Positions 7,192 through 57,075 of a DNA stretch of 64,000 bases are shown piece by piece. A program made the position numbers and the translations under genes. Below the pieces are notes generated by a model. That model ran no database searches. It was not told the origin of the DNA and saw only the letters and a list, made by a program, of their open reading frames with translations. How positions within the stretch are numbered: the first letter of the stretch is position 1; every line of letters starts with the position of its first letter. The DNA comes from Girardia tigrina (taxonomy: Eukaryota): positions 1-64,000 of the forward strand of contig MQRK01226410.1 of assembly GCA_001938485.1 (NCBI GenBank), given 5' to 3'.

Positions 7192-9226
7192 TTGGGTTGG
7201 CCAAAAAGTCATTGCGTTTTTTACTAAAATATTTATTATCAAAAAATGACATGGATGCACAAATATTTTTGCACAATATACTGTTCATTATTTTCAATCA
7301 CTTTCTTCCACCTTTCCGATAGCTTCATTATTCCTGATTCATAAAAACCTTTGCCTTTGTCAGCAAAAAAGCCGTCTAGGAACGATTTGATGTCATCATC
7401 ACTGGCGAATGTTTTTCTGTTTAAGGAATTCTGCAGTGTTCTAAATAAGTGAAAATCCGATGGTGCCAAGTCTGGAGAATACGGTGGGTGCGGCAAAACA
7501 TCCCAACCCAGTGATAAGAGTTTCTGGCGAGTGGTCAAACTTGTATGCGGTCTTGCGATATCATGCTGAATTACAACTCCTTTTCGATTTTCCAATTCAG
7601 GACGTTCCTGTTGAATTGAATGAGCCAATTTCTCCAGCTGACCACAATATCTGTCTGAATTGATGGTTTCATTCCTCGGAAGGAGTTCAAAAAACACAAT
7701 TCCTTTAAAATCCCACCAGACGGAAAGCATGACCTTCATTTGGTGAATTTCTGCTTTTGGGATCATTTTGGCAGGCTCACCACGTTTTGTCCATGATCGT
7801 CGGCGTTCCACATTGTTGTAAACAATCCATTTTTCGTCATCCGTAATCAAGAGCTTCAAAAATGGATCACTTTGTTCTCGCTTCAAAAGGGAATCGCAAA
7901 TGTCTATACGTTTCACCAAATGAATTTCTTTCAGTTCATGTGGTAACCACATATTGAGTNNNNNNNNNNNNNNNNNNNNNNNNNNNNNNNNNNNNNNNNN
8001 NNNNNNNNNATCAAGAGCTTCAAAAATGGATCACTTTGTTCTCGCTTCAAAAGGGAATCGCAAATGTCTATACGTTTCACCAAATGAATTTCTTTCAGTT
8101 CATGTGGTAACCACATATTGAGTTTACTCACAAATTCAAGTTTCTTTAAATGACTTCCAACACTTGATTTTGATATTTCCAGTCTCTGCAACTTCTCTTG
8201 TCGTCATATGTGGATTAGATTTGATCAGTGCTGTTATTTTGTCGCCATCAACTTCAACTGGTCGACCGGAGCGTGGTGCATCTTTCAGATGAAATTTTTC
8301 AGAACGAAATTTAGAAAACCAGTATTGACACTGTCGAAGTTTTAAGGAGTCACTATCATGTACAAAACATATCTTCTTATGAGCTTGCACAGCTGTTTTC
8401 CATTTGCAAAAATAAAGCAACAAAACATGATGAATATGCTCATTTTGATTTTTCATTTCGAATTGACGGTAAAGTAATAAATTAAAACAAAATCAATTAA
8501 TATTTTGTATAAACATAGTCTAAAAATTAAGGTTTCAGAATATATAATTGAATTTCAATTTTATCACATCGTTTTATATTTTCAAGCTTTTTATTAGGAC
8601 GTACTCAAAAACGCGATGACTTTTTGGACTGTAAGTAGTGTTTATGCCACTTTCATTATTATCACATTCTGAAGTCATAATTTAACACCACAAAAATTTA
8701 TTAATAACAACAATTCACATACTTAAACAAATTAATTCAATTATTTCGCCCAAAATTAATTTACAATTCTTTTCGATTAAATTCTGAAAATTCACGAAAA
8801 TTAAACCTTAAAAATAATTTTACATTTTTTGCATAAAATTTTTCAAAATCTTTACCTTAAAATAATTTTGCATTTTTTTTACAAAAAAATTTACAAAATT
8901 TAAAATGTAAAATACTTTTACATTCTTACGAAAATTTTTCATAAAACTAATTAATTTAAATTTACAATAAGCCCTTTTATTAAAAAAAATATTTCTAAAA
9001 ATATTAATCCGTTAATTATTTATTTTAAACTTTATTTAAACTTATTCCACTTATAAAATATATTAATTGTTATTAATGTAGACACATTTTAAATACGTAT
9101 TTATTTTATCATATTTTTACTCTGCATTTTAATTTTCTAATTTATTTCCTTTAAATTTTCAAAACTAAAAAAACAATAAACTATTTTGGCGAAAATTAAA
9201 ACTAACCCCACATATGGACAACCCAA
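7192..9226 (-). mobile_element. Mariner transposon inserted in the Gypsy 5' LTR
   Basis: TIR ttgggttggccaaaaagtcattgcgttttt with TA flanks. Transposase 8456-7239 has TDDEKW, HDIARPH and YSPDLAPSD motifs. The right TIR is split by a solo LTR. Confidence 0.92.
8630..9214 (+). mobile_element. Solo LTR inserted in the mariner TIR
   Basis: TG...TA termini, exact 5-bp TSD tggac (8625-8629, 9215-9219), AATAAA near the 3' end. Confidence 0.8.
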
Positions 9227-15324: not shown

Positions 15325-16553
15325 GTGAGACACTTCGCATACATATTTATTAATTGGATATAATAAGATAAACAGGAATTCACATTTTCTATATTTGAAA
15401 AATTAATTAATTATTAATCATAAATTAATTAATAAATAATCAAAAATTATTAATAAATATTAATTAATTAATTCATTTAAAATAAATTAAATAACTTAAA
15501 ATAAAATAAATTATAAATTAAAATAAATTATAAATTAAATAAATTTAATTAATTAATAAAAAATTAAAAGTTTTTAATAAATATTCATAAATTATTTGTA
15601 AAATTAAAAAACCTAATAATAAATATACACAAATTAAGTAATTTATTAATATTTACAAATTAATTAATAAATAATCAAAAATTAATTTATAAATATTCAT
15701 AAATTAATAAATAATTATATATATATNNNNNNNNNNNNNNNNNNNNNNNNNNNNNNNNNNNNNNNNNNNNNNNNNNNNNNNNNNNNNNNNNNNNNNNNNN
15801 NNNNNNNNNNNNNNNNNNNNNNNNNNNNNNNNNNNNNNNNNNNNNNNNNNNNNNNNNNNNNNNNNNNNNNNNNNNNNNNNNNNNNNNNNNNNNNNNNNNN
15901 NNNNNNNNNNNNNNNNNNNNNNNNNNNNNNNNNNNNNNNNNNNNNNNNNNNNNNNNNNNNNNNNNNNNNNNNNNNNNNNNNNNNNNNNNNNNNNNNNNNN
16001 NNNNNNNNNNNNNNNNNNNNNNNNNNNNNNNNNNNNNNNNNNNNNNNNNNNNNNNNNNNNNNNNNNNNNNNNNNNNNNNNNNNNNNNNNNNNNNNNNNNN
16101 NNNNNNNNNNNNNNNNNNNNNNNNNNNNNNNNNNNNNNNNNNNNNNNNNNNNNNNNNNNNNNNNNNNNNNNNNNNNNNNNNNNNNNNNNNNNNNNNNNNN
16201 NNNNNNNNNNNNNNNNNNNNNNNNNNNNNNNNNNNNNNNNNNNNNNNNNNNNNNNNNNNNNNNNNNNNNNNNNNNNNNNNNNNNNNNNNNNNNNNNNNNN
16301 NNNNNNNNNNNNNNNNNNNNNNNNNNNNNNNNNNNNNNNNNNNNNNNNNNNNNNNNNNNNNNNNNNNNNNNNNNNNNNNNNNNNNNNNNNNNNNNNNNNN
16401 NNNNNNNNNNNNNNNNNNNNNNNNNNNNNNNNNNNNNNNNNNNNNNNNNNNNNNNNNNNNNNNNNNNNNNNNNNNNNNNNNNNNNNNNNNNNNNNNNNNN
16501 NNNNNNNNNNNNNNNNNNNNNNNNNNNNNNNNNNNNNNNNNNNNNNNNNNNNN

Positions 16554-18843: not shown

Positions 18844-20475
18844 TTTGGTTGTCAAACGATGCGAGATTATGTATTGAAATATATGAGAACAGATGTATTG
18901 CTGTTGGCAGATTTTTTCGAGAATTTCCGGAAAATGTGTATGGATTATTATCAAATAGATCCTTGTTATTGTTACTCAACTCCTGGTTTGACTTGGCAAG
19001 CTGGAATGAAATTTACCAAACAAAAACTATAATATTTCAAAGAAGATTGATATGATAAATTATTATTTTATGAAGCTGGAATTCGAGGTGGAGTTGCAAC
19101 TGTTTTTGGAAATCGTTATATTCGTTCGCATAATCGATATACAGAAGAAGATATTGGTAAAAAGATTGTGATAAATGAATATGAATTTGATTTGATGATG
19201 GAAGATTTTGAACGATCAAAAGACAAAGCAAATTATGATTTTCATAAATATTTTAGAGAAAGTTATGTATTGTATTACGATGCCAACTCATTGTATTCAT
19301 CATCAATAACCAGATATTTACCTACTAGTGAAATGGAATGGTCTGAAGACGAGGAATTGTCATACGAGGAGTCAGATGAGGAATCTGAACATGGATTCGT
19401 TTATAAAGTCGATTTGCGATATCCTGATTCGATTAAACGAAAATCATTTTATTATCCATTTTGTCCGGAAAAACTGGTACCAAAAACACCGGAGGAAGAA
19501 TTATCGGAATATGAACGTTCGGTTTATCCAGAACGAGCAGATAAAACGGAAAAATTGGTACAGACATTTCTCGACAAACGAAAATATATTGTCGAAGGAA
19601 GGACATTGGATTTCTATTTGAAACAGGAAATGGAATTGGAAAAAATCTATCGGAAATTAGTATACAAGAAATCTCCTTGGTTGCGTCCATTTATTGAATT
19701 CAATATCCAGAAATGAAGGGAAGCAGGAAAACATTTATTTGGAGATTTCTTTTTCAAATTGATGAACAATTCGTTTTATGATAAAACGCTGGAAAATGTT
19801 CGAAATCATTCTAATATTAAAATTGTCAATAATCGAAAAATGTTTGAAAAGCTGGCTGGTAAACCAGAATACAAATCTTTGACTCTGTTCAATCGGAAAC
19901 TTTGTGCAGTTGAAATGCGAAAAACTTCAGTATAATATAAGTTCAATTATATTGGATTAACTGTTTTGAAGCTGTCAAAACTTTTAATGTTTCGATTTGC
20001 TTACGAAGGATTACATACAATTTGGAACTTTGAATCGGGAAATGTATTATTACATTATACCGATACCGATTCTTTTTTTGTACAAATTTACGATAGTTTA
20101 GATAATATTAGTTATAAGTTGAAAGATTGGTTACATAATTCCGATTTGGGAAAATTCAAAGATGGAATGGAAGGTGTGAAAATTATTGAAGAAATGGTTG
20201 ATATAAAATCAAAAGATTATATTTTTTAACATATTTTATTGGCAAAAAATCAGAAAGGAGAAACTTGTAAAAATAAAGAAGTAAAGGATGTAACTTTTGA
20301 AAATAGAATTAATATTTTATTTGATAATGAAAAAATAATGAAAGAAGAGAAAAATATTATATCGAAATTACATGAAATTAATATTGTATCAAAAACAAAA
20401 CAGGCATCTTCTGGATACGATAATAAAAAACGATATCCATTTAATCATATAACATTTTTTTCCTATAGGTTTTAA
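18844..20475 (+). pseudogene. Polinton/Maverick (adintovirus-like) family B DNA polymerase remnant
   Basis: RTDVLLLADFFENFRKMC..YQIDPCYCYSTPGLTW, GIRGG, YYDANSLY, KLMNNSFY(D)KTLEN, HYTDTDS, LGKFKD; contains stops and frameshifts. Confidence 0.88.
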
Positions 20476-21718: not shown

Positions 21719-22984
21719 GTCGTTATTGTTGTTAAAATCGAAAGATATGTTTCTGTATTAATATTCTGTCGTAATATATTTCGTATTAAAAAGGGTACCA
21801 TTGTTGGGTATTTGAATTAAAACTCGGTTTTCTCCTTGTTATTATTAAATTTCTAATCTGACTCCAAAACGACCAAAAAGTTTCTTCCAACAATAATATA
21901 TGAAGAATAAACACAAATCCTTTTAATATACTTTATTTGCAAATAACAACTTGAGCACAAAATTAAATCGAAACTTTAACAGTAAATCAATATTTTGAAG
22001 CACACTCAACCAGCACAAACCAATATCAATTTAGAACGAGCAATATCTGAAAATTATGATTAAATTTTTCTCCTTGGCAGGATACTAAATTTGTTAAGTA
22101 AACCAAAATTAAATGAAGAAAGATTACCGTAAATCATAATAAAGTTTAAAGATTTAATGGGATCCGTAAGTATAATTTTGTCCGTAATTTTTGTTGTGAA
22201 TATGACTGAAATAATTATTGTTTATATACTAGTTTCTAAATAACCTTGAAAATTAGTTTGCTAAAACAATTCTAAAAATATTTACAAATATTCTAAAAAT
22301 TTTATTAAAATAAGTATTATGATAATCAAAAAATTATTAATTTTAACCAGAGAATTATTTTTAATTTTTCTATTAGGTTTTAAAATTTTAATTTATATTT
22401 TTCGGAACCCCGACACCATTATAAAATGGTAACAGTTTTCCAAATGAATTGTTTCCTTGACACAGGTGATAGCATTTTCTGGTTTTAGCATTATGAAGGA
22501 CATATGTGTATATATGTAGTTATATATATATATATNNNNNNNNNNNNNNNNNNNNNNNNNNNNNNNNNNNNNNNNNNNNNNNNNNNNNNNNNNNNNNNNN
22601 NNNNNNNNNNNNNNNNNNNNNNNNNNNNNNNNNNNNNNNNNNNNNNNNNNNNNNNNNNNNNNNNNNNNNNNNNNNNNNNNNNNNNNNNNNNNNNNNNNNN
22701 NNNNNNNNNNNNNNNNNNNNNNNNNNNNNNNNNNNNNNNNNNNNNNNNNNNNNNNNNNNNNNNNNNNNNNNNNNNNNNNNNNNNNNNNNNNNNNNNNNNN
22801 NNNNNNNNNNNNNNNNNNNNNNNNNNNNNNNNNNNNNNNNNNNNNNNNNNNNNNNNNNNNNNNNNNNNNNNNNNNNNNNNNNNNNNNNNNNNNNNNNNNN
22901 NNNNNNNNNNNNNNNNNNNNNNNNNNNNNNNNNNNNNNNNNNNNNNNNNNNATATATATATATGATCACTTTTTATATTGGATT

Positions 22985-25658: not shown

Positions 25659-25697
<39 letters not shown>

Positions 25698-25700
<3 letters not shown>

Positions 25701-25726
25701 GGATAAAAACAAGACGACGCGTTTCG
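25698..25726 (-). repeat. End of another copy of the hammerhead-bearing repeat, between (TA)n and a gap
   Basis: tagggataaaaacaagacgacgcgtttcg differs by one base from 47471-47499. Confidence 0.75.
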
Positions 25727-26301
25727 NNNNNNNNNNNNNNNNNNNNNNNNNNNNNNNNNNNNNNNNNNNNNNNNNNNNNNNNNNNNNNNNNNNNNNNNNN
25801 NNNNNNNNNNNNNNNNNNNNNNNNNNNNNNNNNNNNNNNNNNNNNNNNNNNNNNNNNNNNNNNNNNNNNNNNNNNNNNNNNNNNNNNNNNNNNNNNNNNN
25901 NNNNNNNNNNNNNNNNNNNNNNNNNNNNNNNNNNNNNNNNNNNNNNNNNNNNNNNNNNNNNNNNNNNNNNNNNNNNNNNNNNNNNNNNNNNNNNNNNNNN
26001 NNNNNNNNNNNNNNNNNNNNNNNNNNNNNNNNNNNNNNNNNNNNNNNNNNNNNNNNNNNNNNNNNNNNNNNNNNNNNNNNNNNNNNNNNNNNNNNNNNNN
26101 NNNNNNNNNNNNNNNNNNNNNNNNNNNNNNNNNNNNNNNNNNNNNNNNNNNNNNNNNNNNNNNNNNNNNNNNNNNNNNNNNNNNNNNNNNNNNNNNNNNN
26201 NNNNNNNNNNNNNNNNNNNNNNNNNNNNNNNNNNNNNNNNNNNNNNNNNNNNNNNNNNNNNNNNNNNNNNNNNNNNNNNNNNNNNNNNNNNNNNNNNNNN
26301 N

Positions 26302-26341
<40 letters not shown>

Positions 26342-29079: not shown

Positions 29080-31356
29080 ATCATGGATTTGTTGGATCCA
29101 TCCATTGAACCCTTAACATATAACCATCCATTTTTATCAACCATTTGTACTATCCGTGACCTGATTTGTTGGTTTCATAAATGTCGTAACTCTATTGGTC
29201 GTATATCTCTTCCTATTGATACAAGTTCGTGTCGTCTTGCATTATCCCCAGATACAAGTCTGCATGTCTTAATTGATATGTTTCAACAGTTAAAGTGGCA
29301 TTTGGTGATGCCATCGGGGGCCCAATCTAAACGTATTTACGGAAGCGATAATCTGGATAAGACACTAGAATGTCTTGATTTATATCCCAGTGCTCATCTT
29401 CTCGCTATCATCAGCTGCCCGTTAGAATTACAAAAGGAAATCAAACCGAAACATACAAAGTTACTCCAGATGTCTTCAAACCTAAATAATTTTATTGATC
29501 CTAACGCAATTACAAATAAAGATTCCAATAATTGTTGCGTTAATATTAGGATGATCAACTATCGTAACAACCCTCTTTATCTGCAAGGCAATGCTTCGTA
29601 TTCTCATAACTACGATCCCAAGAAAACAACTCTTCAGAGAATCGCTGTCGACTTTTCTTGCTTCTGTCAAATGAATCTAGCATCCTTTACTCTCTTACAA
29701 ATGCAACCGAGGAAAAGATTCTCTTATCCTGATGATTATTTACGCACGTTATCTGATCTTGGTCTTGGTGGTGATGTGACTCTTTACTGTCATTCTATTT
29801 TACCGGTGGCTACAGAATCCAATGACAACAACAGTGTCTCAAACAATAGCAACGAAGTCATAATGCCAAATATTGATCTATTCAATCCAAGGACTGACAT
29901 CGCTGCTGTGACTGTTCATAGTCGAACTGAAACCGGAGTTTTACCGTTCTCTGGAGTCGGTGTATCTCTTCCAGGATCTTATACAAGTAAAACAGTCGCT
30001 GAGATTTGGACTAATAAACAACTGAGTCTTCCTGGTGCTCGAGTGGTTTCATTCGATCAAAGTACGATTAAAAACGTACCGAAGTCATTATACTATTTGT
30101 GTTTCCAAGAAATTTATCATTCTTTAAAGTTGTATAATTCTCTTGTTTGTCAATCGGTAAAAAAGTTACCCAATAACATTCAACAAACCCTTATTAAACA
30201 TCTGATTGATGAGCAACTATTAACGCCAAGTATCATTAAATTTTTCTGCTCTCCTGGGACGTGTCTTACCACTCTAGATCTTTCTTATACGATCTTGGCA
30301 ACAAACGAAATTCTCAAGTGCGTGAGCAGGTGTCTGTCATTGTTGGAGCTTGTACTCGACAATGAGGAACACGTATTTAGCAATGAGGGTTTATGGCACT
30401 TGCGGAATTGTTCCAATTTGAGACGTCTTAGTTTGAACTATTGTAGCAAAATTAACGACTGGGGGATTCAGGTTGTTGGCGTGTTGCCCGCTCTTTCCGT
30501 GCTTGCTATCAAATATACATCAGTAACTAACGTCGGTCTAAAGCACATCTTTCTCCATCTCAACACAGAAAATGAATCCACTTCAATACCAGTATTAAAA
30601 TCTCTGGATTTATCAGGTTTATCGATTAGTGATGAGTGTTTGTCTTCCATTGCGATCTTCCGACGACTGGAATTGTTGAATCTTTCTTCGACCAATCTAA
30701 CAAATCCGTCTCTCTTTCCTCATTTGGCCGAATTGCGTCACATTGACATCAGTAACTGCCAATCCCTGGTCTGGGAGAAACAAGCCCACATAAAATCTTT
30801 GAGTGAATCGTTTCCAAAATTATCTTCAATTAATGTACGAGGAGTATCGAATTCCAATCTAGTGCACGTAACCATGGCAATATCTCATTGTAAAAATCTC
30901 AGTCAAATAGACGGTATCTTCTGTCATTCTCAAATGACTGCCAGTCTGGCAGCAAGTTTGTCTCATTTGCCCCTTGAAACCATTATTCTGACAAATTGTC
31001 GACACGTTACTGATTTGTGGTTACCTGTGCTCGCTCGGTTCTCCGAAACTCTGACGCATCTTGTGATCAGTTCTTGTCCTTCGATCACTGGTCAAAACAA
31101 CTCGCTTGTAAATAACTTGAGTAGATTAAGGAATCTATCTTGGCTTGACCTGACCCATCTCGAGAACGTCAGTGGCCTTCAAATCTGTCAGCTTATTCTT
31201 GGACAGTATTTCCCCAAACTGCAGGTTGTTTGGATATCTCTCACCGAGGCTGAGGAAATTCAGTTTAGGACTGCCTCCAAAAACCTTCATTTTAAAGTAA
31301 ATGTTTCAAAGAGTTTTGTAAATTCACTCGAGTCAGATCTAGCGGCAAATATTTAA
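29080..31356 (+). CDS. Terminal exon of UBA-UBX-UBX-LRR gene: two UBX-like domains, SHP box, BC/Cul2 box, leucine-rich repeats
   Basis: tttag acceptor; 758 sense codons. Motifs DKTLECLDLYPSAHL, QPRKRF..DDYLRTLSDLGL, FSGVGVSL, SLYYLCFQEI, LPNNIQQTL, then many LxxLxLxxC/T repeats. Confidence 0.88.
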   Translation: MMDLLDPSIEPLTYNHPFLSTICTIRDLICWFHKCRNSIGRISLPIDTSSCRLALSPDTSLHVLIDMFQQLKWHLVMPSGAQSKRIYGSDNLDKTLECLDLYPSAHLLAIISCPLELQKEIKPKHTKLLQMSSNLNNFIDPNAITNKDSNNCCVNIRMINYRNNPLYLQGNASYSHNYDPKKTTLQRIAVDFSCFCQMNLASFTLLQMQPRKRFSYPDDYLRTLSDLGLGGDVTLYCHSILPVATESNDNNSVSNNSNEVIMPNIDLFNPRTDIAAVTVHSRTETGVLPFSGVGVSLPGSYTSKTVAEIWTNKQLSLPGARVVSFDQSTIKNVPKSLYYLCFQEIYHSLKLYNSLVCQSVKKLPNNIQQTLIKHLIDEQLLTPSIIKFFCSPGTCLTTLDLSYTILATNEILKCVSRCLSLLELVLDNEEHVFSNEGLWHLRNCSNLRRLSLNYCSKINDWGIQVVGVLPALSVLAIKYTSVTNVGLKHIFLHLNTENESTSIPVLKSLDLSGLSISDECLSSIAIFRRLELLNLSSTNLTNPSLFPHLAELRHIDISNCQSLVWEKQAHIKSLSESFPKLSSINVRGVSNSNLVHVTMAISHCKNLSQIDGIFCHSQMTASLAASLSHLPLETIILTNCRHVTDLWLPVLARFSETLTHLVISSCPSITGQNNSLVNNLSRLRNLSWLDLTHLENVSGLQICQLILGQYFPKLQVVWISLTEAEEIQFRTASKNLHFKVNVSKSFVNSLESDLAANI

Positions 31357-44964: not shown

Positions 44965-45817
44965 CTGTAATATAAAGATTCTAGCATTATCTGTACGCGG
45001 GAGTTGCAATATTATCAAATCAAATTTGATTTGAGAAAGAAAAGATCATTTAGTGTTATAAAAAATCAAATTAAAGATTAATTTTGTCTACCGACGTTCT
45101 GCGATATTCAGACGGTCAATATGAAATCTAGCTTCAGTTCTTCTGGGAGAGACTTGTTTCAAAAAGTGCAAATAGTGTCAAACTTAGATTAAAATCTGCT
45201 ATCTCAAATTATGTTTCGGCGGTAACTTATGAAAGATTTAGAGAATTCTAATTAAATATGATTTACTAATTTTTTTGTCTCTCGCATATGATAATTTGTC
45301 ACAAAATTGCGTTTGTAAAAAGGATTAAATTTATTTTTATAATGTAGAATAATTTCCTTCCATGAAACTTTAGTTATAAGGTTCAACTTCAATGACCAGG
45401 TTTTGGTCTTTTCTGGTCCTGTCTTATTATAGACCAACTTATGGGTATTTTATATATCCAAGGACTTAGTTACAATTTCAACTTGCCTAATAACTTAATT
45501 AGAAAATTCAAATTTAATATTATTATTAAAACTATATATAAATTTTATAAGAAAAATAGCAATTTTAAATTACAAAAATAAAACATGTTAATTCAATATC
45601 TCTAAAAGTATATATCAAAATTTAGAAAAGGAGTTAATTTAAAACCCTAGAAAAATGAAATAAGTTAATTGAAAATTTTCATAAACGTAAAAAATATAAG
45701 AAAGATACTTTAAAATCATTAAAAATGATTAATACAAAAATTCAAAACGTTAAATAAATGTTTATTAATAGAAATCAAAAATATAAAATAAATATAAACA
45801 TAATTTGAAATATTTAA

Positions 45818-46040
45818 CCCTTTCCTGGCTGAATTAAAAATCCTTAAATCACTTTCTGCAACTTTCAAATGATAAAAATAAAAGGACGGTTGACAAAATA
45901 CGTGTTAAAATAATTTTTCTTTAAAAGAAAAATCTTCCTTATTCATCAGGATAAAAATTTTATTCATATTTTTTCCATAGATGCCTATAAAATATTAAAA
46001 TGAAACATGATTCCATATGACATCAATAGTCAGGAAAGGG
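45818..46040. mobile_element. piggyBac-type MITE
   Basis: TTAA flanks; TIRs ccctttcctg(g/a)ct. Confidence 0.85.
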
Positions 46041-46503
46041 TTAATTTAAAATAATAACTTATTTTGAAATAAAATAATTTAATTAAAAAACAATTAATAC
46101 AATATAAAAATTTAAAAGAAGAAAAAATGATTAAGTAAATAAATTAATCGACTTTTTAACAAAAAAGGAAAAAGGAAAATGACAAAAGTTAAAAAAAAGG
46201 AAATGAAAATCTGCTTAAATTTATATGTAAAATAATTTACAAAATTAATAATTATGAAGTTTCATTCAAATTTGGAAAACGGTATAAACGCAACTAACAA
46301 TTAATTACAAATAATAAAGTTAAATAATTATTTATTATAAAAATAAAAAAAACATTTCTTCCTTATAATATTAACATAACGAAGGGTTTGAAGTATTTGA
46401 TAACAAATAAAACTGTTTGTCAAAGTAATGAATCAATCTACCGAGTGGCAACATAAGTTAGTTGCTAACAAAGGTGTTGTTTTACCCTCTCAAAGGAAGA
46501 AAC

Positions 46504-47110
46504 TGTAAAAGAGCTAACTGAAAACGTGTTTCAGTGAACTCCTTTAACTTAAAAAAATAAAGATAAATATTAGGTTGGTCGAAAAATAATGGCGGTTTTG
46601 GGACACAAACTTCAAAGACGTGCAAATTCACAGAAAAAAAGTTTATTAATCAAAGTATGAACCGTTGGCATCAATACATTTTTGCCTATACATATTTGAT
46701 TTTTCATTTCAATATTTTCTATTTTCTTGAGAAGCGAATGAAAAAGGTGAAAATTTAAATTCTTTTCTGCGTCGTTGTATATATTCTCGTTAAACGGAAT
46801 TTGGTTTTCAGGTACACTGATAGGTACGTGTTTGTGGAATTGTGGTGTATGAGGGTTGGTGAAGTTGATGTTTAAATGGTTAATATGATTTGATATTTTG
46901 TTTGTTTGTGTTTTGACAGGGTTTGTAATTGTGAGATTAAATTTGGGTTTGTATAAAGACATAATTTTTTTAAAAAAATTTGTTGTGTTTGTAGTGATTG
47001 TAATTGTATGTAAATGTCTGTGTTTCGTTTGTTTCTGACACCAGTGTAAAGAGCTAACTGAAAACGTGTTTCAGTGAACTTCTTTAACGTAAAAAAATAA
47101 AGATAAATAT
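46504..47110 (+). repeat. About 66-bp direct repeats (46504-46570, 47045-47110) flanking a mariner-end fragment
   Basis: tgtaaa(a)gagctaactgaaaacgtgtttcagtgaact...aataaagataaatat occurs twice; mariner-like TIR ttaggttggtcgaaaa at 46570. Confidence 0.8.
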
Positions 47111-47483
47111 GTATAGAACTTTTATTTTTACACTATAAAAATAAACATATATAACGAAAAAATCACATACGAGAGAGAGTGAACGGCATGGATAAATCTC
47201 GATATCGATAAGTGTTTATTGTTCATTGTTGTAATAATGTCGATGGAAACATCAGAGAATCATTTGGTTGCACAATGAGATTTTGAGGAAATAGATTATA
47301 TGGAGAGGAGCACTTTCAGGGAGAATTCTGATAAATTGGTTTGCAGAAAACTCCTTTACGAACCGATTTTACAGGAAAACGCACCGCAGGCAATATAGTG
47401 TAATTGTAAACAGTAATTTTAATGATTGTTTATATATATATATATACAATGTAAGGTAAAATCTATAGAATAGGGATAAAAAT

Positions 47484-47528
47484 AAGACGACGCGTTTCGA
47501 GATAATAAAAATCCCATCATCAGGTCAC
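47484..47528 (-). ncRNA. Minimal type I hammerhead ribozyme (Penelope-type), minus-strand copy
   Basis: gac-CUGAUGA-u-gggau-loop-aucuc-GAAAC-gc-GUC-guc. Confidence 0.8.
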
Positions 47529-47870
47529 AAAATGTACCAACCAGGTACACTATATGGAAACATGCCGAAAATAAAAAATATTTATCCAATAAATTATTGG
47601 ATGAAAATAACTTTATTTCACTTTTCCTTAAAATTAAGAGAGATGCACTAAATGCAAAGTATTTTCATCCAATAATTTATTGGATAAATATTTTTTATTT
47701 TCGGCATGTTTCCATATAGTGTACCTGCTTGGTACATTTTGTGACCTGATGATGGGATTTTTATTATCTCGAAACGCGNNNNNNNNNNNNNNNNNNNNNN
47801 NNNNNNNNNNNNNNNNNNNNNNNNNNNNTTTCGGCATGTTTCCATATAGTGTACCTGCTTGGTACATTTT

Positions 47871-47915
47871 GTGACCTGATGATGGGATTTTTATTATCTC
47901 GAAACGCGTCGTCTT
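47871..47915 (+). ncRNA. Minimal type I hammerhead ribozyme, plus-strand copy (another gap-truncated copy at 47741-47778)
   Basis: CTGATGA at 47876-47882; stem II gggat/atctc; GAAACGCGTC at 47901-47910; stem I gac/gtc. Confidence 0.82.
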
Positions 47916-49121
47916 ATTTTTATCCCTAATATATATATATATATATAATTTTATATATAATTTACTATATATAATTTATATATAATGATTGACTGGATCA
48001 CTACAGAAACAATGAATATTTGCCAAAAAAGACCGATTTAACAAACTTCACTTTATTTTGTTTATTAAAACCTTAGTAAAAGTTATTTTAATAGAAATTT
48101 ATCATTTAAAAAAGCCATGATTGTTTGAAAAATAAAATAATTATTAAAGATCCAACTAAACAAGAAACATTGCAGTGATTATAACGCAGAGAATATGTCC
48201 ACATTGCCATCACGATCTGGACAACCTAACGTTTATCTAGTTTGGATATTTTATAAAATTAATGTTGTTGTTTCAGATAATCAATACCATTTATTTTAAA
48301 TTGATAATCACTTAATATTTTGATACTCGAAAACAAAAATAGGTATATACAAAACCGATTAACGACCAGTATTACTTGCTATTCAGATCGAATACGTTAT
48401 ATCTTGTTACGGGTTAGAACAAAATACTACATGTAACAATTTATTAGTAACAAACGTCACAGAAAAATGTTTTACAACACACTTTTGCAAACCACCATTT
48501 ATGGTTGGGAAGTTCAATGTGTTTCTACTTAGTAAATAAAATTTTGTCAAACTTAAATTTAAATTTTGTTTCCTTGTGACATTTTTTTGATCTAACTCTA
48601 AAATATCTTTTTCAAGATATTAGGTCGTCAAATATGAAATTTTATTACCACGTTTTACTTAACTTGCTTTGGGTTCTGTCTGTCTTTCTGTTTGTTTGTG
48701 ATGTTTCACTTTTCACACGCTTTTTTAGACCACTTCCACTCATCCGATCTATCTGAAATTTTTTATGTAGGCTTCTTCTGCCTGACATTTTGAGATTTTA
48801 GCATCTCTGCATCTCAAAAATGCTCTAATAAATTCAAATTAATTAATTTTATATGGACTAAATTAAAATATAAAATTTATAAATTATAAAATTAAATCTT
48901 GGTATACTACTTATAATAATAAGTAGTATAATAATACTACTAAAAAATAAGAACATAATAATAAATAAAAAAGTTTTAAAATAATTTAGAAATAATCGAT
49001 TGTTACTAAAAAGCAGTAAAGAGGAAATAGCAGTTACTAATAGCAGTAATTCAGAAATCCGCCCCACGTTTTTGGTTAGGTATAAAATTTCTCACATGTC
49101 TAGAAAAAAATTATTTTCCTC

Positions 49122-49530
49122 TTCTTAGTCCATATGAAAACGTGGTTTTTAAAACTTTTTTATTTATTATTATTTTCTTATTTAGAACTGAAGTCAAAGT
49201 TAATGACAAATATTTGGCATTCATCAAAGTATGTACCGATATTATCGACAAACTTTCATCCTTTGAGTGGAAGCTTGCTAAGGCTCTTTGAATAAAATTT
49301 TTGTGGGCGAGAATTTGTAAATTCTTGGAAGGCCATTTTTCAATTCTTCAGAATTGATTTTTTCCTATCAAAAGGCTGTTCGCATTGAGGAAGAAATTGT
49401 AGTGAGTAGGGGCTTTGGTGAGTATGGAAGATGATGCAAAAGTTTCAAGTCAAGTTCCTGTAGTTTTGACACGATTTTAAGTGCAGTATGTTGTTTTGCT
49501 TTGTCGTGGAGCAAGATGGTGCTGTTTTTC
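49122..49530 (-). mobile_element. Degenerate mariner C-terminal fragment
   Basis: ILLHDKAKQH...SKLQELDLKLLHHLPYSP motif. Confidence 0.65.
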
Positions 49531-51109
49531 TTTGAGTTTTTGAGTGTTTCGCCTTACGTCCTCCTTATTTCTCTGATTTTGTGATGCAAGAATTTCACGG
49601 GTTAGGGTTATGGTTAGTGATAAAACCAAGTAGATTTGAAAGAAAAGCTCCAGGAATGTACGGCTCAGTGGACGCACATTTCTCTCGACAGAGGTGTTAA
49701 AAATTTACCAAAACCGTTGGTAAAATGTTGTGGAATGTATCAGAGAATATAAAATGAACAATAATCTTTTTGATATTAGGTTTCGACTTTGTTTTTTTAA
49801 AACACTTCACGTGCTCATATTATAAGATAAAATATTAGAAATGGAAGTCTATAGATCCATCCATCGAATCACCTATTGTCAAGAATTTCTTAATATATTT
49901 ATCCTTACTTTCGCTGAAGATTAATATTTGAAAATACCAGTAATGCATCTGTAATGGGTACTTTACATCAACCTTTCGAGGCAACCCTACGGTTAACCCT
50001 TGAGAGTTAAATTATATAAGAGATGTGCAAATTTAATAACCGAAGGACCGAGAAGTATCGCCCTTACGGTGATTTTTGGAACAACGAAATAAATTTGGTT
50101 TTACTAATTTAATAAATGCTGTTAAGACGGAAGTTTTTATGCACTAGTAAAGATATTAACAAATGAGCAGCAAATGTTAACGACGACGTGAGAAGCCGAA
50201 AACCAAATGAAAACATTATCTTCAGACACACACCGGAGTTTCGAGTTCAAGTTTCTTGTTTAAGTACTCAGGTAATTATCACATTTAATAAAAAAAATTA
50301 AAGACAAATATGCCTTCAATGAAACATGTATAAAATGAACCACCCGAAGATATAATTATATAGTTGAACACATCTGTCCACCTAGATCTTGTTATATCTA
50401 CTTTAAGATGATCGTAACTGATCGATCTTCTATTATTCTTTTCATGTTAATATATATAAACAAGTTACCAATATCATCCAAGTCCGACTACAACTGAATA
50501 TTGCCAGTGAATATTAACAGTGAAACTTCGTTTGTATCACCAAATGGACATCCTCCCTGACCGAACCTTTGATCCGATCAAAGATCGTATCATATGATAT
50601 AGATGGACGATCTGAACATCCTTTATTTGTTAATAAAACCACATAGGTATATATATCGCATGAATCATGTCATAAGGAAACTCAACGAAATTTCTTAAGA
50701 AACGCAAAACCATAAATAAATAAATAATTTTTCGGTACCAAGAAGTAATTATAATACGAATATAATGTCCTAGTAAAATATAAAATATAATCTTCCAATT
50801 TACCAAAAATGGTAGACTACAACACAGATATCGCTCGACTTGTTAAACCATTAAGTAGTTTGGCAATTAAAATATTCAGCAAATGGTATTATATAATGAA
50901 GGCTAAGACAATACGAGGAGTAAAAACACAACAAAAATAGACAACGAAAATAGCTGTCACTTATGACCTTACCTTTCCAGAACAAGTCTCTGACCAAAAA
51001 GACATTAATAAAATCGAAAGATACGACGCTGAATAAATAAATATAATTCTCGATATATCTTTATAAAAATAATAAGAATAAGTAATTGGAAATTTATTAC
51101 TAAACTTAC

Positions 51110-56791: not shown

Positions 56792-57075
56792 CCAAGTGCG
56801 GAGATGACGGTTTGTTTCTCCAATGTACAAGGCTTGGCACTAGTAACATGTAAATTGGTAAATTAGGTTGGCCTTAATTCCTAATGGAGTTTCGGATTTG
56901 TTCGTAAAATATCTGGAAGCTTTGTTTGTTGTGAAAATAATTCTTGCTTTAAATCCACGAGGGATGTTCTTTAATAATACTTTTTAAATTCCTAAGACCC
57001 CTCTAAGTACTGAAGTTTCAAAGTTAACGGGACCAGCTCGGAGATTTCTGAGTTTCTTTCATTGTTGCGGATATT
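56792..57075 (-). pseudogene. Penelope-like GIY-YIG endonuclease remnant
   Basis: IFTTNKASRYFTNKSETPLGIKANLIYQFTCY*CQALYIGETNRHLRT. Confidence 0.85.

Follow-up and report, generated by a model that had tools for sequence, protein, structure and literature searches.

Penelope-like elements (PLEs), with minimal hammerhead ribozymes in their pseudo-LTRs (pLTRs), are the closest described relatives of the locus reported here, and hammerheads in opposite orientations have already been described among them. Pairs of minimal hammerheads lying 100-700 bp apart on opposite strands were reported in S. mansoni by Cervera and De la Pena (2014, PMC4209133), and the same source describes a 5'-truncated Cotesia bracovirus PLE with its second motif on the opposite strand. 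In the passages that treat inverted copies, Arkhipova 2013 (PMC3846280) describes head-to-head inverted pLTRs, of which the inverted copy is the shorter and one may bear a tail, together with palindromes at the junctions and self-priming on an antisense template, and Craig 2021 (PMC8557442) describes an inverted 5'-truncated copy, tailed at one end, and (TA)n targets that show no clear target site duplication (TSD). The tail is defined in Frangieh 2024 (PMC11167929) by two start sites of reverse transcription, and Neptune, Hydra and Naiad are described as targeting (TA)n (PMC3846280; PMC8557442). The formation of inverted pLTRs is treated in these reports as an unresolved step of PLE transposition (PMC8557442; PMC3846280). 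The non-LTR retrozymes, in the sections of the literature devoted to them, consist of head-to-tail tandem repeats of 150-450 bp, carry mostly canonical hammerheads and are processed to circles (PMC7229834; bioRxiv 10.64898/2026.07.22.740005).

We report the analysis of a short palindromic element, with a hammerhead motif in each of its arms, found in a window of 64,000 nucleotides (by the window we mean the whole stretch of DNA analysed). The element is very probably a recent, dead-on-arrival insertion of an endonuclease-bearing PLE, truncated at its 5' end and accompanied by an inverted second copy. The arrangement is ordinary, opposite-strand minimal hammerhead pairs having been reported since 2014 (PMC4209133), and as read the locus matters little: it adds a PLE family unmatched in the published tables compared, in an AT-rich animal-type genome and with a known insertion pattern. 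It is also a compact, near-pristine record of inverted pLTR formation, with a longer first copy, a microhomology junction and a candidate tail on one side, and a small natural construct for asking whether an intronic PLE hammerhead does anything. The features of the locus, and the end of a second copy elsewhere in the window, are as follows.

25698-25726, minus strand: end of a second family copy, 28/29 identical, abutting a 36-nt TA tract (sequence comparison)
44965-51109, minus strand: putative last intron, 6.1 kb, of a PAP2-superfamily host gene, containing the element (hand-built gene model)
47431-47446, no strand: (TA)8 tract, presumed to be the left part of a microsatellite target (sequence)
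47447-47470, minus strand: 24-nt extension of the left arm only, a candidate PLE tail presumed to belong to the element (arm identity ends at 47471)
47471-47609, minus strand (sense): left arm, 139 bp, 3' part of the pLTR (arm alignment)
47483-47529, minus strand: minimal type-I hammerhead with C3 at 47523, cut predicted between 47489 and 47488 (descriptor)
47584-47602, no strand: nearly perfect local palindrome of 19 nt close to the left arm's inner end, with its mirror at 47667-47685 (sequence and fold)
47610-47659, minus strand: 50-bp spacer, additional 5' sequence of the longer left copy (colinear with the predicted protein P0004 in the minus reading)
47660-47778, plus strand: right arm, inner 119 bp, to the end of the left contig (arm alignment)
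47779-47828, no strand: 50-N gap, most likely standing in for an overlap left unmerged (gap comparison)
47829-47908, plus strand: exact reprint of 47699-47778, a probable assembly duplication (repeat comparison)
47870-47916, plus strand: minimal type-I hammerhead with C3 at 47876, cut predicted after 47910 (descriptor)
47909-47928, plus strand: right arm, outer 20 bp, up to the family terminus CCCTA (arm alignment)
47929-47946, no strand: (AT)9 tract, presumed to be the right part of the target (sequence)

When the 80-nt overlap at the gap is counted only once, the element consists of two 139-bp arms facing outward, with the 50-bp spacer between them. The left arm, 47471-47609, is the reverse complement of 47660-47778 joined to 47909-47928 at 138 of 139 positions, with a lone mismatch at 47541/47728, and the stability of the resulting hairpin has a z-score of -27, none of 100 shuffles being equally stable. 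The 24-nt extension precedes the TA tract on the left arm and the right arm has no such extension.

Both arms carry, in the same order, the GAC of helix I, CUGAUGA, an extra U, helix II, GAA, the palindrome ACGCGU, C17 and the GUC of helix I. Helix II (GGGAU/AUCUC) comprises 5 bp, opens with a G-C pair, includes a G-U pair and has a 7-nt loop, helix III is the 6-nt palindrome, and all of the pairs modelled in the dimer (22/22) are standard. The predicted cleavage site lies 18 nt from the terminus of the element. The core CUGANGA ... GAAA ... UH, the additional base between A9 and position 10.1 and the G10.1-C11.1 pair that distinguish the PLE minimal hammerheads are all present, and the motif agrees with every field of the >80% consensus of these ribozymes in Fig. 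S3 of Cervera and De la Pena (PMC4209133). Further likenesses to the rows of that figure are the U-rich flank, the 3-bp helix I, the palindromic helix III and the AU-rich 3' flank, and in the type of its 6-nt palindrome the element resembles the rows for D. virilis Penelope and Adineta vaga(1). It differs from the PLE rows in its 5-bp helix II with a G-U pair and in that no ORF is attached here; its exact motif sequence is absent among the rows of Fig. S3 that were compared (PMC4209133). The canonical type-I hammerhead has a 6-bp helix I, a 4-bp helix II and loop contacts, whereas the 3-bp helix I found here is that of the minimal type.

A descriptor built from the published features, though composed after the motif had been seen, finds these two sites only in the window and none in 300 dinucleotide shuffles. 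It places plus-strand cleavage at the site that an earlier note on this DNA had predicted, after 47910; that note had also described near-perfect inverted arms, each with a hammerhead, had assigned the motif to the PLE minimal type and had taken the element for a non-coding, inverted-repeat derivative of a PLE, all of which finds support. The search with hammerhead models that it had proposed as a check speaks against the motif: no Rfam hammerhead family reaches the gathering score in the whole window, nor is there any hammerhead match at E<=10 over 47300-48100 or 47829-47930, while matches to Rfam miRNA families fall far under their gathering scores and reflect a generic hairpin. The hammerhead-core pattern has no match across 185,579 prokaryotic genomes, with no sign of a bacterial source. 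In the supplement of Craig 2021 the 3' core of the motif has no match and its 5' part has two unrelated ones. We also considered a type-III reading, in which CGGCAUGUUUC upstream can pair with the GAAAC...GUCG strand; helix I is then left with two core mismatches and the fold would be inactive.

The element resembles the inverted truncated PLEs (PMC3846280, PMC8557442) in its head-to-head pLTRs, the shorter inverted copy, the extension at one end, the palindrome near the junction, the (TA)n flanks and the lack of a readable TSD. It departs from them in its extreme truncation, which leaves no coding body, and in the length of the extension, 24 nt rather than 30-40.

Two further members of the family were found, one in the window and one as a predicted protein. 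The copy at 25698 lies in a region (25662-26337) in which the first TA tract is followed by the copy end, then by a 575-N gap into which the rest of the copy disappears and then by a further 36-nt TA tract at 26302-26337. The second member came from the minus frame of the element, which is open through spacer, arm and extension (P ~0.03, 5000 shuffles) and whose sole relative among 1.84 billion representatives is P0004 (E=2.7e-21), a protein with no Pfam match that is not an RT copy. P0004 matches 49 of the 62 codons in 47655-47472, covering spacer and arm in one frame and in a single run, and turns, precisely at the terminus shared with the element, to a Y/I repeat, which is how a TA tract translates; the 43 residues upstream of this run have no match in the inverted arm or elsewhere in the window. 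This colinearity implies that the spacer is family sequence and part of the longer left copy and that the junction lies near 47659/47660, while the upstream part, being unlike the inverted arm, implies that at least one family copy is not this palindrome. All three copies seen (the element, the copy at 25698 and P0004) terminate in a TA tract, from which one end of the present element is separated by the extension. The palindrome looks locus-specific, as far as can be judged from P0004, which like the protein P0002 discussed below is known as a predicted protein alone and not as DNA. A coding role for the minus frame was rejected, P0004 being its sole relative and lacking any Pfam match; the ORF is probably spurious, or at most the start of a PLE ORF. 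The hammerhead core contains ATG ATG, with the frame open on through the extension, and since the PLE ORF of Frangieh 2024 (PMC11167929) starts inside the hammerhead, this likeness lends slight support to the course of insertion proposed below.

The following course of events would account for the element. A GIY-YIG enzyme would nick the (TA)n tract and target-primed reverse transcription would begin there, copying only the final ~213 nt of the RNA, that is the tail, the end of the pLTR with its hammerhead and 50 further nt. The 3' end of the new strand would then fold back on a 4-nt microhomology, or the RT would switch template at this point, and the arm would be recopied with a 1-nt slip to the shorter of two termini and joined across the TA tract, with the hammerheads as passengers of the pLTR. 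What is observed is a pair of head-to-head 139-bp arms, the spacer of a longer copy and an extension at one end only; the 5' truncation with an adjacent, head-to-head inverted copy is present if the sense of the element is taken from the hammerhead strand. Fold-back of the cDNA is the probable origin of the inverted copy, and the course outlined agrees with the descriptions in Arkhipova 2013, Craig 2021 and Frangieh 2024. At the junction, 47656-47659 and 47611-47614 share a microhomology of 4 nt, whose shuffle P of about 0.02-0.025 is post hoc, and as single-stranded DNA this weak primer has an equilibrium pairing probability of <=0.004, such that the enzyme would have to hold it. The 24-nt extension is a candidate PLE tail but could be host DNA: it has no further match within the window and is absent from both of the other copies (P0004 and that at 25698), which, together with its length of 24 nt against the 30-40 nt described, counts against the tail reading.

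PLE relics are present in the window. An RT fragment of PLE type with the motif RYVDD occupies 1-159 on the minus strand, running off the start of the window, and a decayed PLE-type GIY-YIG endonuclease (EN) relic lies at 56795-57052, also on the minus strand. The protein P0002, 94% identical to the EN relic, matches Pfam GIY-YIG weakly (E=0.0027), and the clusters near which P0003 falls are eukaryotic, one of them with GIY-YIG in 18% of its members. Read from P0003, the EN relic has a CCHH pattern without the upstream Cys linker, whereas the (TA)n targeting described belongs to Neptune, Hydra and Naiad; the relic is not linked to the element. Indeed, comparison across the window finds no DNA common to the element and either relic, so that the parentage is unlinked, and this counts against a PLE origin. 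No autonomous PLE carrying the pLTR of the element was found, the search with the arm frame giving one match, the non-RT P0004. At its start P0002 carries part of its own EN region in antisense, residues 5-26 matching 56792-56857 on the plus strand, and a 4-nt word is common to the homologous junction positions 56843 and 57027. It is an apparent second case of head-to-head inversion, possibly a library artefact.

MITE and foldback DNA elements are short and non-coding, with long inverted arms and a TA-rich target. The near-perfect arms and TA flanks of the present element would also suit a fixed palindromic, non-autonomous family of that sort, moving as a unit either by means of a PLE in trans or through a TA-targeting DNA transposase with the arms as its terminal inverted repeats, and we regard this as unlikely. 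The copy at 25698 has the same orientation at its start and is flanked by two TA tracts, the remainder of such a palindrome could lie in its 575-N gap, mariner-like elements are common in the window, and pLTRs alone are described as able to mobilise cargo in trans (PMC3846280). However, P0004 has spacer and arm without the inverted arm, the ends of the element are unequal in that one bears the 24-nt extension, and a DNA-transposon MITE would leave a full PLE hammerhead unexplained; it is these unequal ends, the hammerhead and a related copy without the inversion that separate the element from MITE and foldback elements. The contigs, moreover, behave as if the junction were unique: the left contig ends 119 nt beyond 47659/47660 and the right contig begins 118 nt short of the end of the AT tract, a spacing from which we infer that the inversion junction and the right TA tract may each have served as a unique anchor. 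A literature search over titles and the starts of abstracts, with most subscription papers and Repbase outside its scope, found no fixed palindromic hammerhead family, which is not proof of absence.

The truncated and inverted PLE insertion thus remains the preferred reading. As to the host gene, which the earlier note had called PLPPR-like, a minus-strand exon gives a weak PAP2 match (E=0.0012, below the curated cut-off), and in a model built by hand GT/AG sites permit phase-0 joins from 53339 to 51220 and from 51110 to 44964. The element would accordingly lie in a phase-0 intron, 51109-44965, with the minus-strand motif in the pre-mRNA, as the earlier note had proposed. The penalty for a hammerhead-compatible fold, one in which helices I and II form while the core stays free, is 80 kcal/mol for the whole element, 11-13 kcal/mol for a single arm and 6.4 kcal/mol for the bare core, by nearest-neighbour energies that ignore tertiary contacts of the core and help from protein. 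On the minus strand, the presumed sense of the pre-mRNA, the emerging left arm is predicted to be 97-98% paired to the antisense arm before and during the appearance of the core. Transcription of the antisense arm would come first in read-through RNA and in host pre-mRNA alike, this arm would zip up the sense arm, and the ribozyme could not fold. A double hammerhead with a 6-bp helix III is sterically valid, at -16.5 kcal/mol against -23.2 kcal/mol for the best free dimer fold, but as the motifs are on opposite strands no single transcript carries both copies for such a dimer and the partner must come from another transcript.

On these models the ribozymes would most likely be silent at the locus, cleavage being unlikely, and the likely RNA product would be a 139-bp intronic hairpin, with dsRNA or siRNA likelier than cleavage. 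The hairpin may be edited, or diced to siRNAs against the family; in transgenic Drosophila, inverted Penelope copies coincide with sources of siRNA (PMC3681739). Of the described ribozymes, the S. mansoni minimal motif showed no cleavage as a monomer and weak cleavage as a dimer or trimer (PMC4209133); the Anolis PLE hammerhead depended on protein, and insertion in vitro did not require the motif (PMC11167929). The earlier note had expected such a motif to cleave as a dimer, which this literature supports, and had allowed that a transcript could fold into long dsRNA, which the stability of the hairpin makes credible. Its implication that ribozymes would act from both strands is not supported, since the hairpin is favoured by ~80 kcal/mol, would form before the motif is transcribed and excludes the ribozyme. 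A viroid-like or circular-RNA reading was likewise set aside, there being one cleavage site per strand, and for genome scans a caution follows: an inverted repeat with a hammerhead on each strand need not mean a viroid-like replicon of two polarities.

It is very unlikely, in our view, that the head-to-head layout is itself functional, with divergent pLTR promoters yielding identical sense RNAs that cleave in trans as a double hammerhead through the 6-nt palindrome, while read-through RNA is masked and feeds siRNA. Were this true, the palindrome would serve as a ribozyme cassette that can be switched on or off and might spread as a non-autonomous family in its own right, and inverted pLTRs would gain a purpose in the PLE cycle; P0004 speaks against the palindrome as a fixed cassette family.

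The earlier note had run the right arm from 47660 to 47928 and had called the element retrozyme-like. The inverted arm is real, but as assembled it measures 269 nt, and the extra length is the 80-nt overlap by which 47699-47778 is reprinted exactly at 47829-47908, across the 50-N gap. An exact overlap flanks two of the three fifty-N gaps in the window (80 nt and 114 nt) and the third has none. At 7846-8123, inside a mariner-like ORF, a 114-nt exact duplication, an assembly overlap, spans the gap 7960-8009, and as a control its collapse gives a single continuous mariner-like frame, from which it follows that the gap at 47779-47828 most likely hides no sequence. It would be a placeholder for an unmerged overlap, and the true length of the element would be 328 bp, or 352 bp with the left extension. 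It is highly improbable that the gap instead conceals a real partial tandem, retrozyme-like or a true pLTR tandem, with two sense hammerheads on the plus strand able to form a double hammerhead. Two plus-strand cores are indeed present as assembled, at 47746 (broken off at the gap) and 47876, the double hammerhead is valid at the energy given above and partial tandems are typical of PLEs (PMC8557442, PMC8969392); against this, the repeat begins and ends exactly at the contig ends with 80/80 identity, the like pattern at 7960-8009 collapses to one open frame, and the antisense arm would still bind one of the copies. The element does resemble the non-LTR retrozymes in being short and non-coding, with a type-I hammerhead and a likely derivation from PLEs. 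Retrozymes, however, need head-to-tail tandem units, whereas here there is a single head-to-head pair with one minimal motif per strand, no route to the excision of a monomer and an apparent tandem that is the gap overlap, and the description as retrozyme-like is not sustained.

Amplification with phi29 typically yields inverted chimeras with short microhomology, and the assembly is gappy and of short-read type (nine N-gaps within the 64-kb window), with microhomology at the junction and the outer end of the right arm in another contig, but there is only a very slender chance that the inversion is an artefact of assembly or whole-genome amplification, since one contig holds the left arm, the spacer and 119 bp of the right arm, the arms differ by one base, the right arm ends at the family terminus and is followed by a different flank with no mirror of the left one, and the gap is flanked on both sides by exons, compatible in phase, of one putative gene.

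Several other observations concern the window at large. It is AT-rich, 2-kb windows being mostly 25-35% GC, and from a reading of the ORF list it is full of mariner-like and gypsy-like fragments. The gaps at 15727-16553 and 22536-22951 begin or end in TA runs and could hide TA-targeting insertions. An older, imperfect palindrome of ~330 bp at 1832-2159, with arms 71% identical and an AT-rich centre, is possibly a decayed MITE, with no hammerhead match in it. Broken ORFs at 19051-20229 on the plus strand have no Pfam match and, by eye, resemble the family-B DNA polymerase of a Polinton/Maverick-type element. An intronless 758-aa ORF at 29080-31356 on the plus strand shows a weak UBX match and has a single relative (59%), with leucine-rich-repeat Pfam numbers. 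The intron that contains the element also holds a 63-bp direct repeat (46508-46570 and 47048-47110, 97%, 540 bp apart) surrounding strand-skewed sequence, the two repeats being possibly the LTRs of a tiny element, and a MITE-like 37-bp inverted repeat (48945-48981 and 49147-49183, 97%, 165 bp apart).
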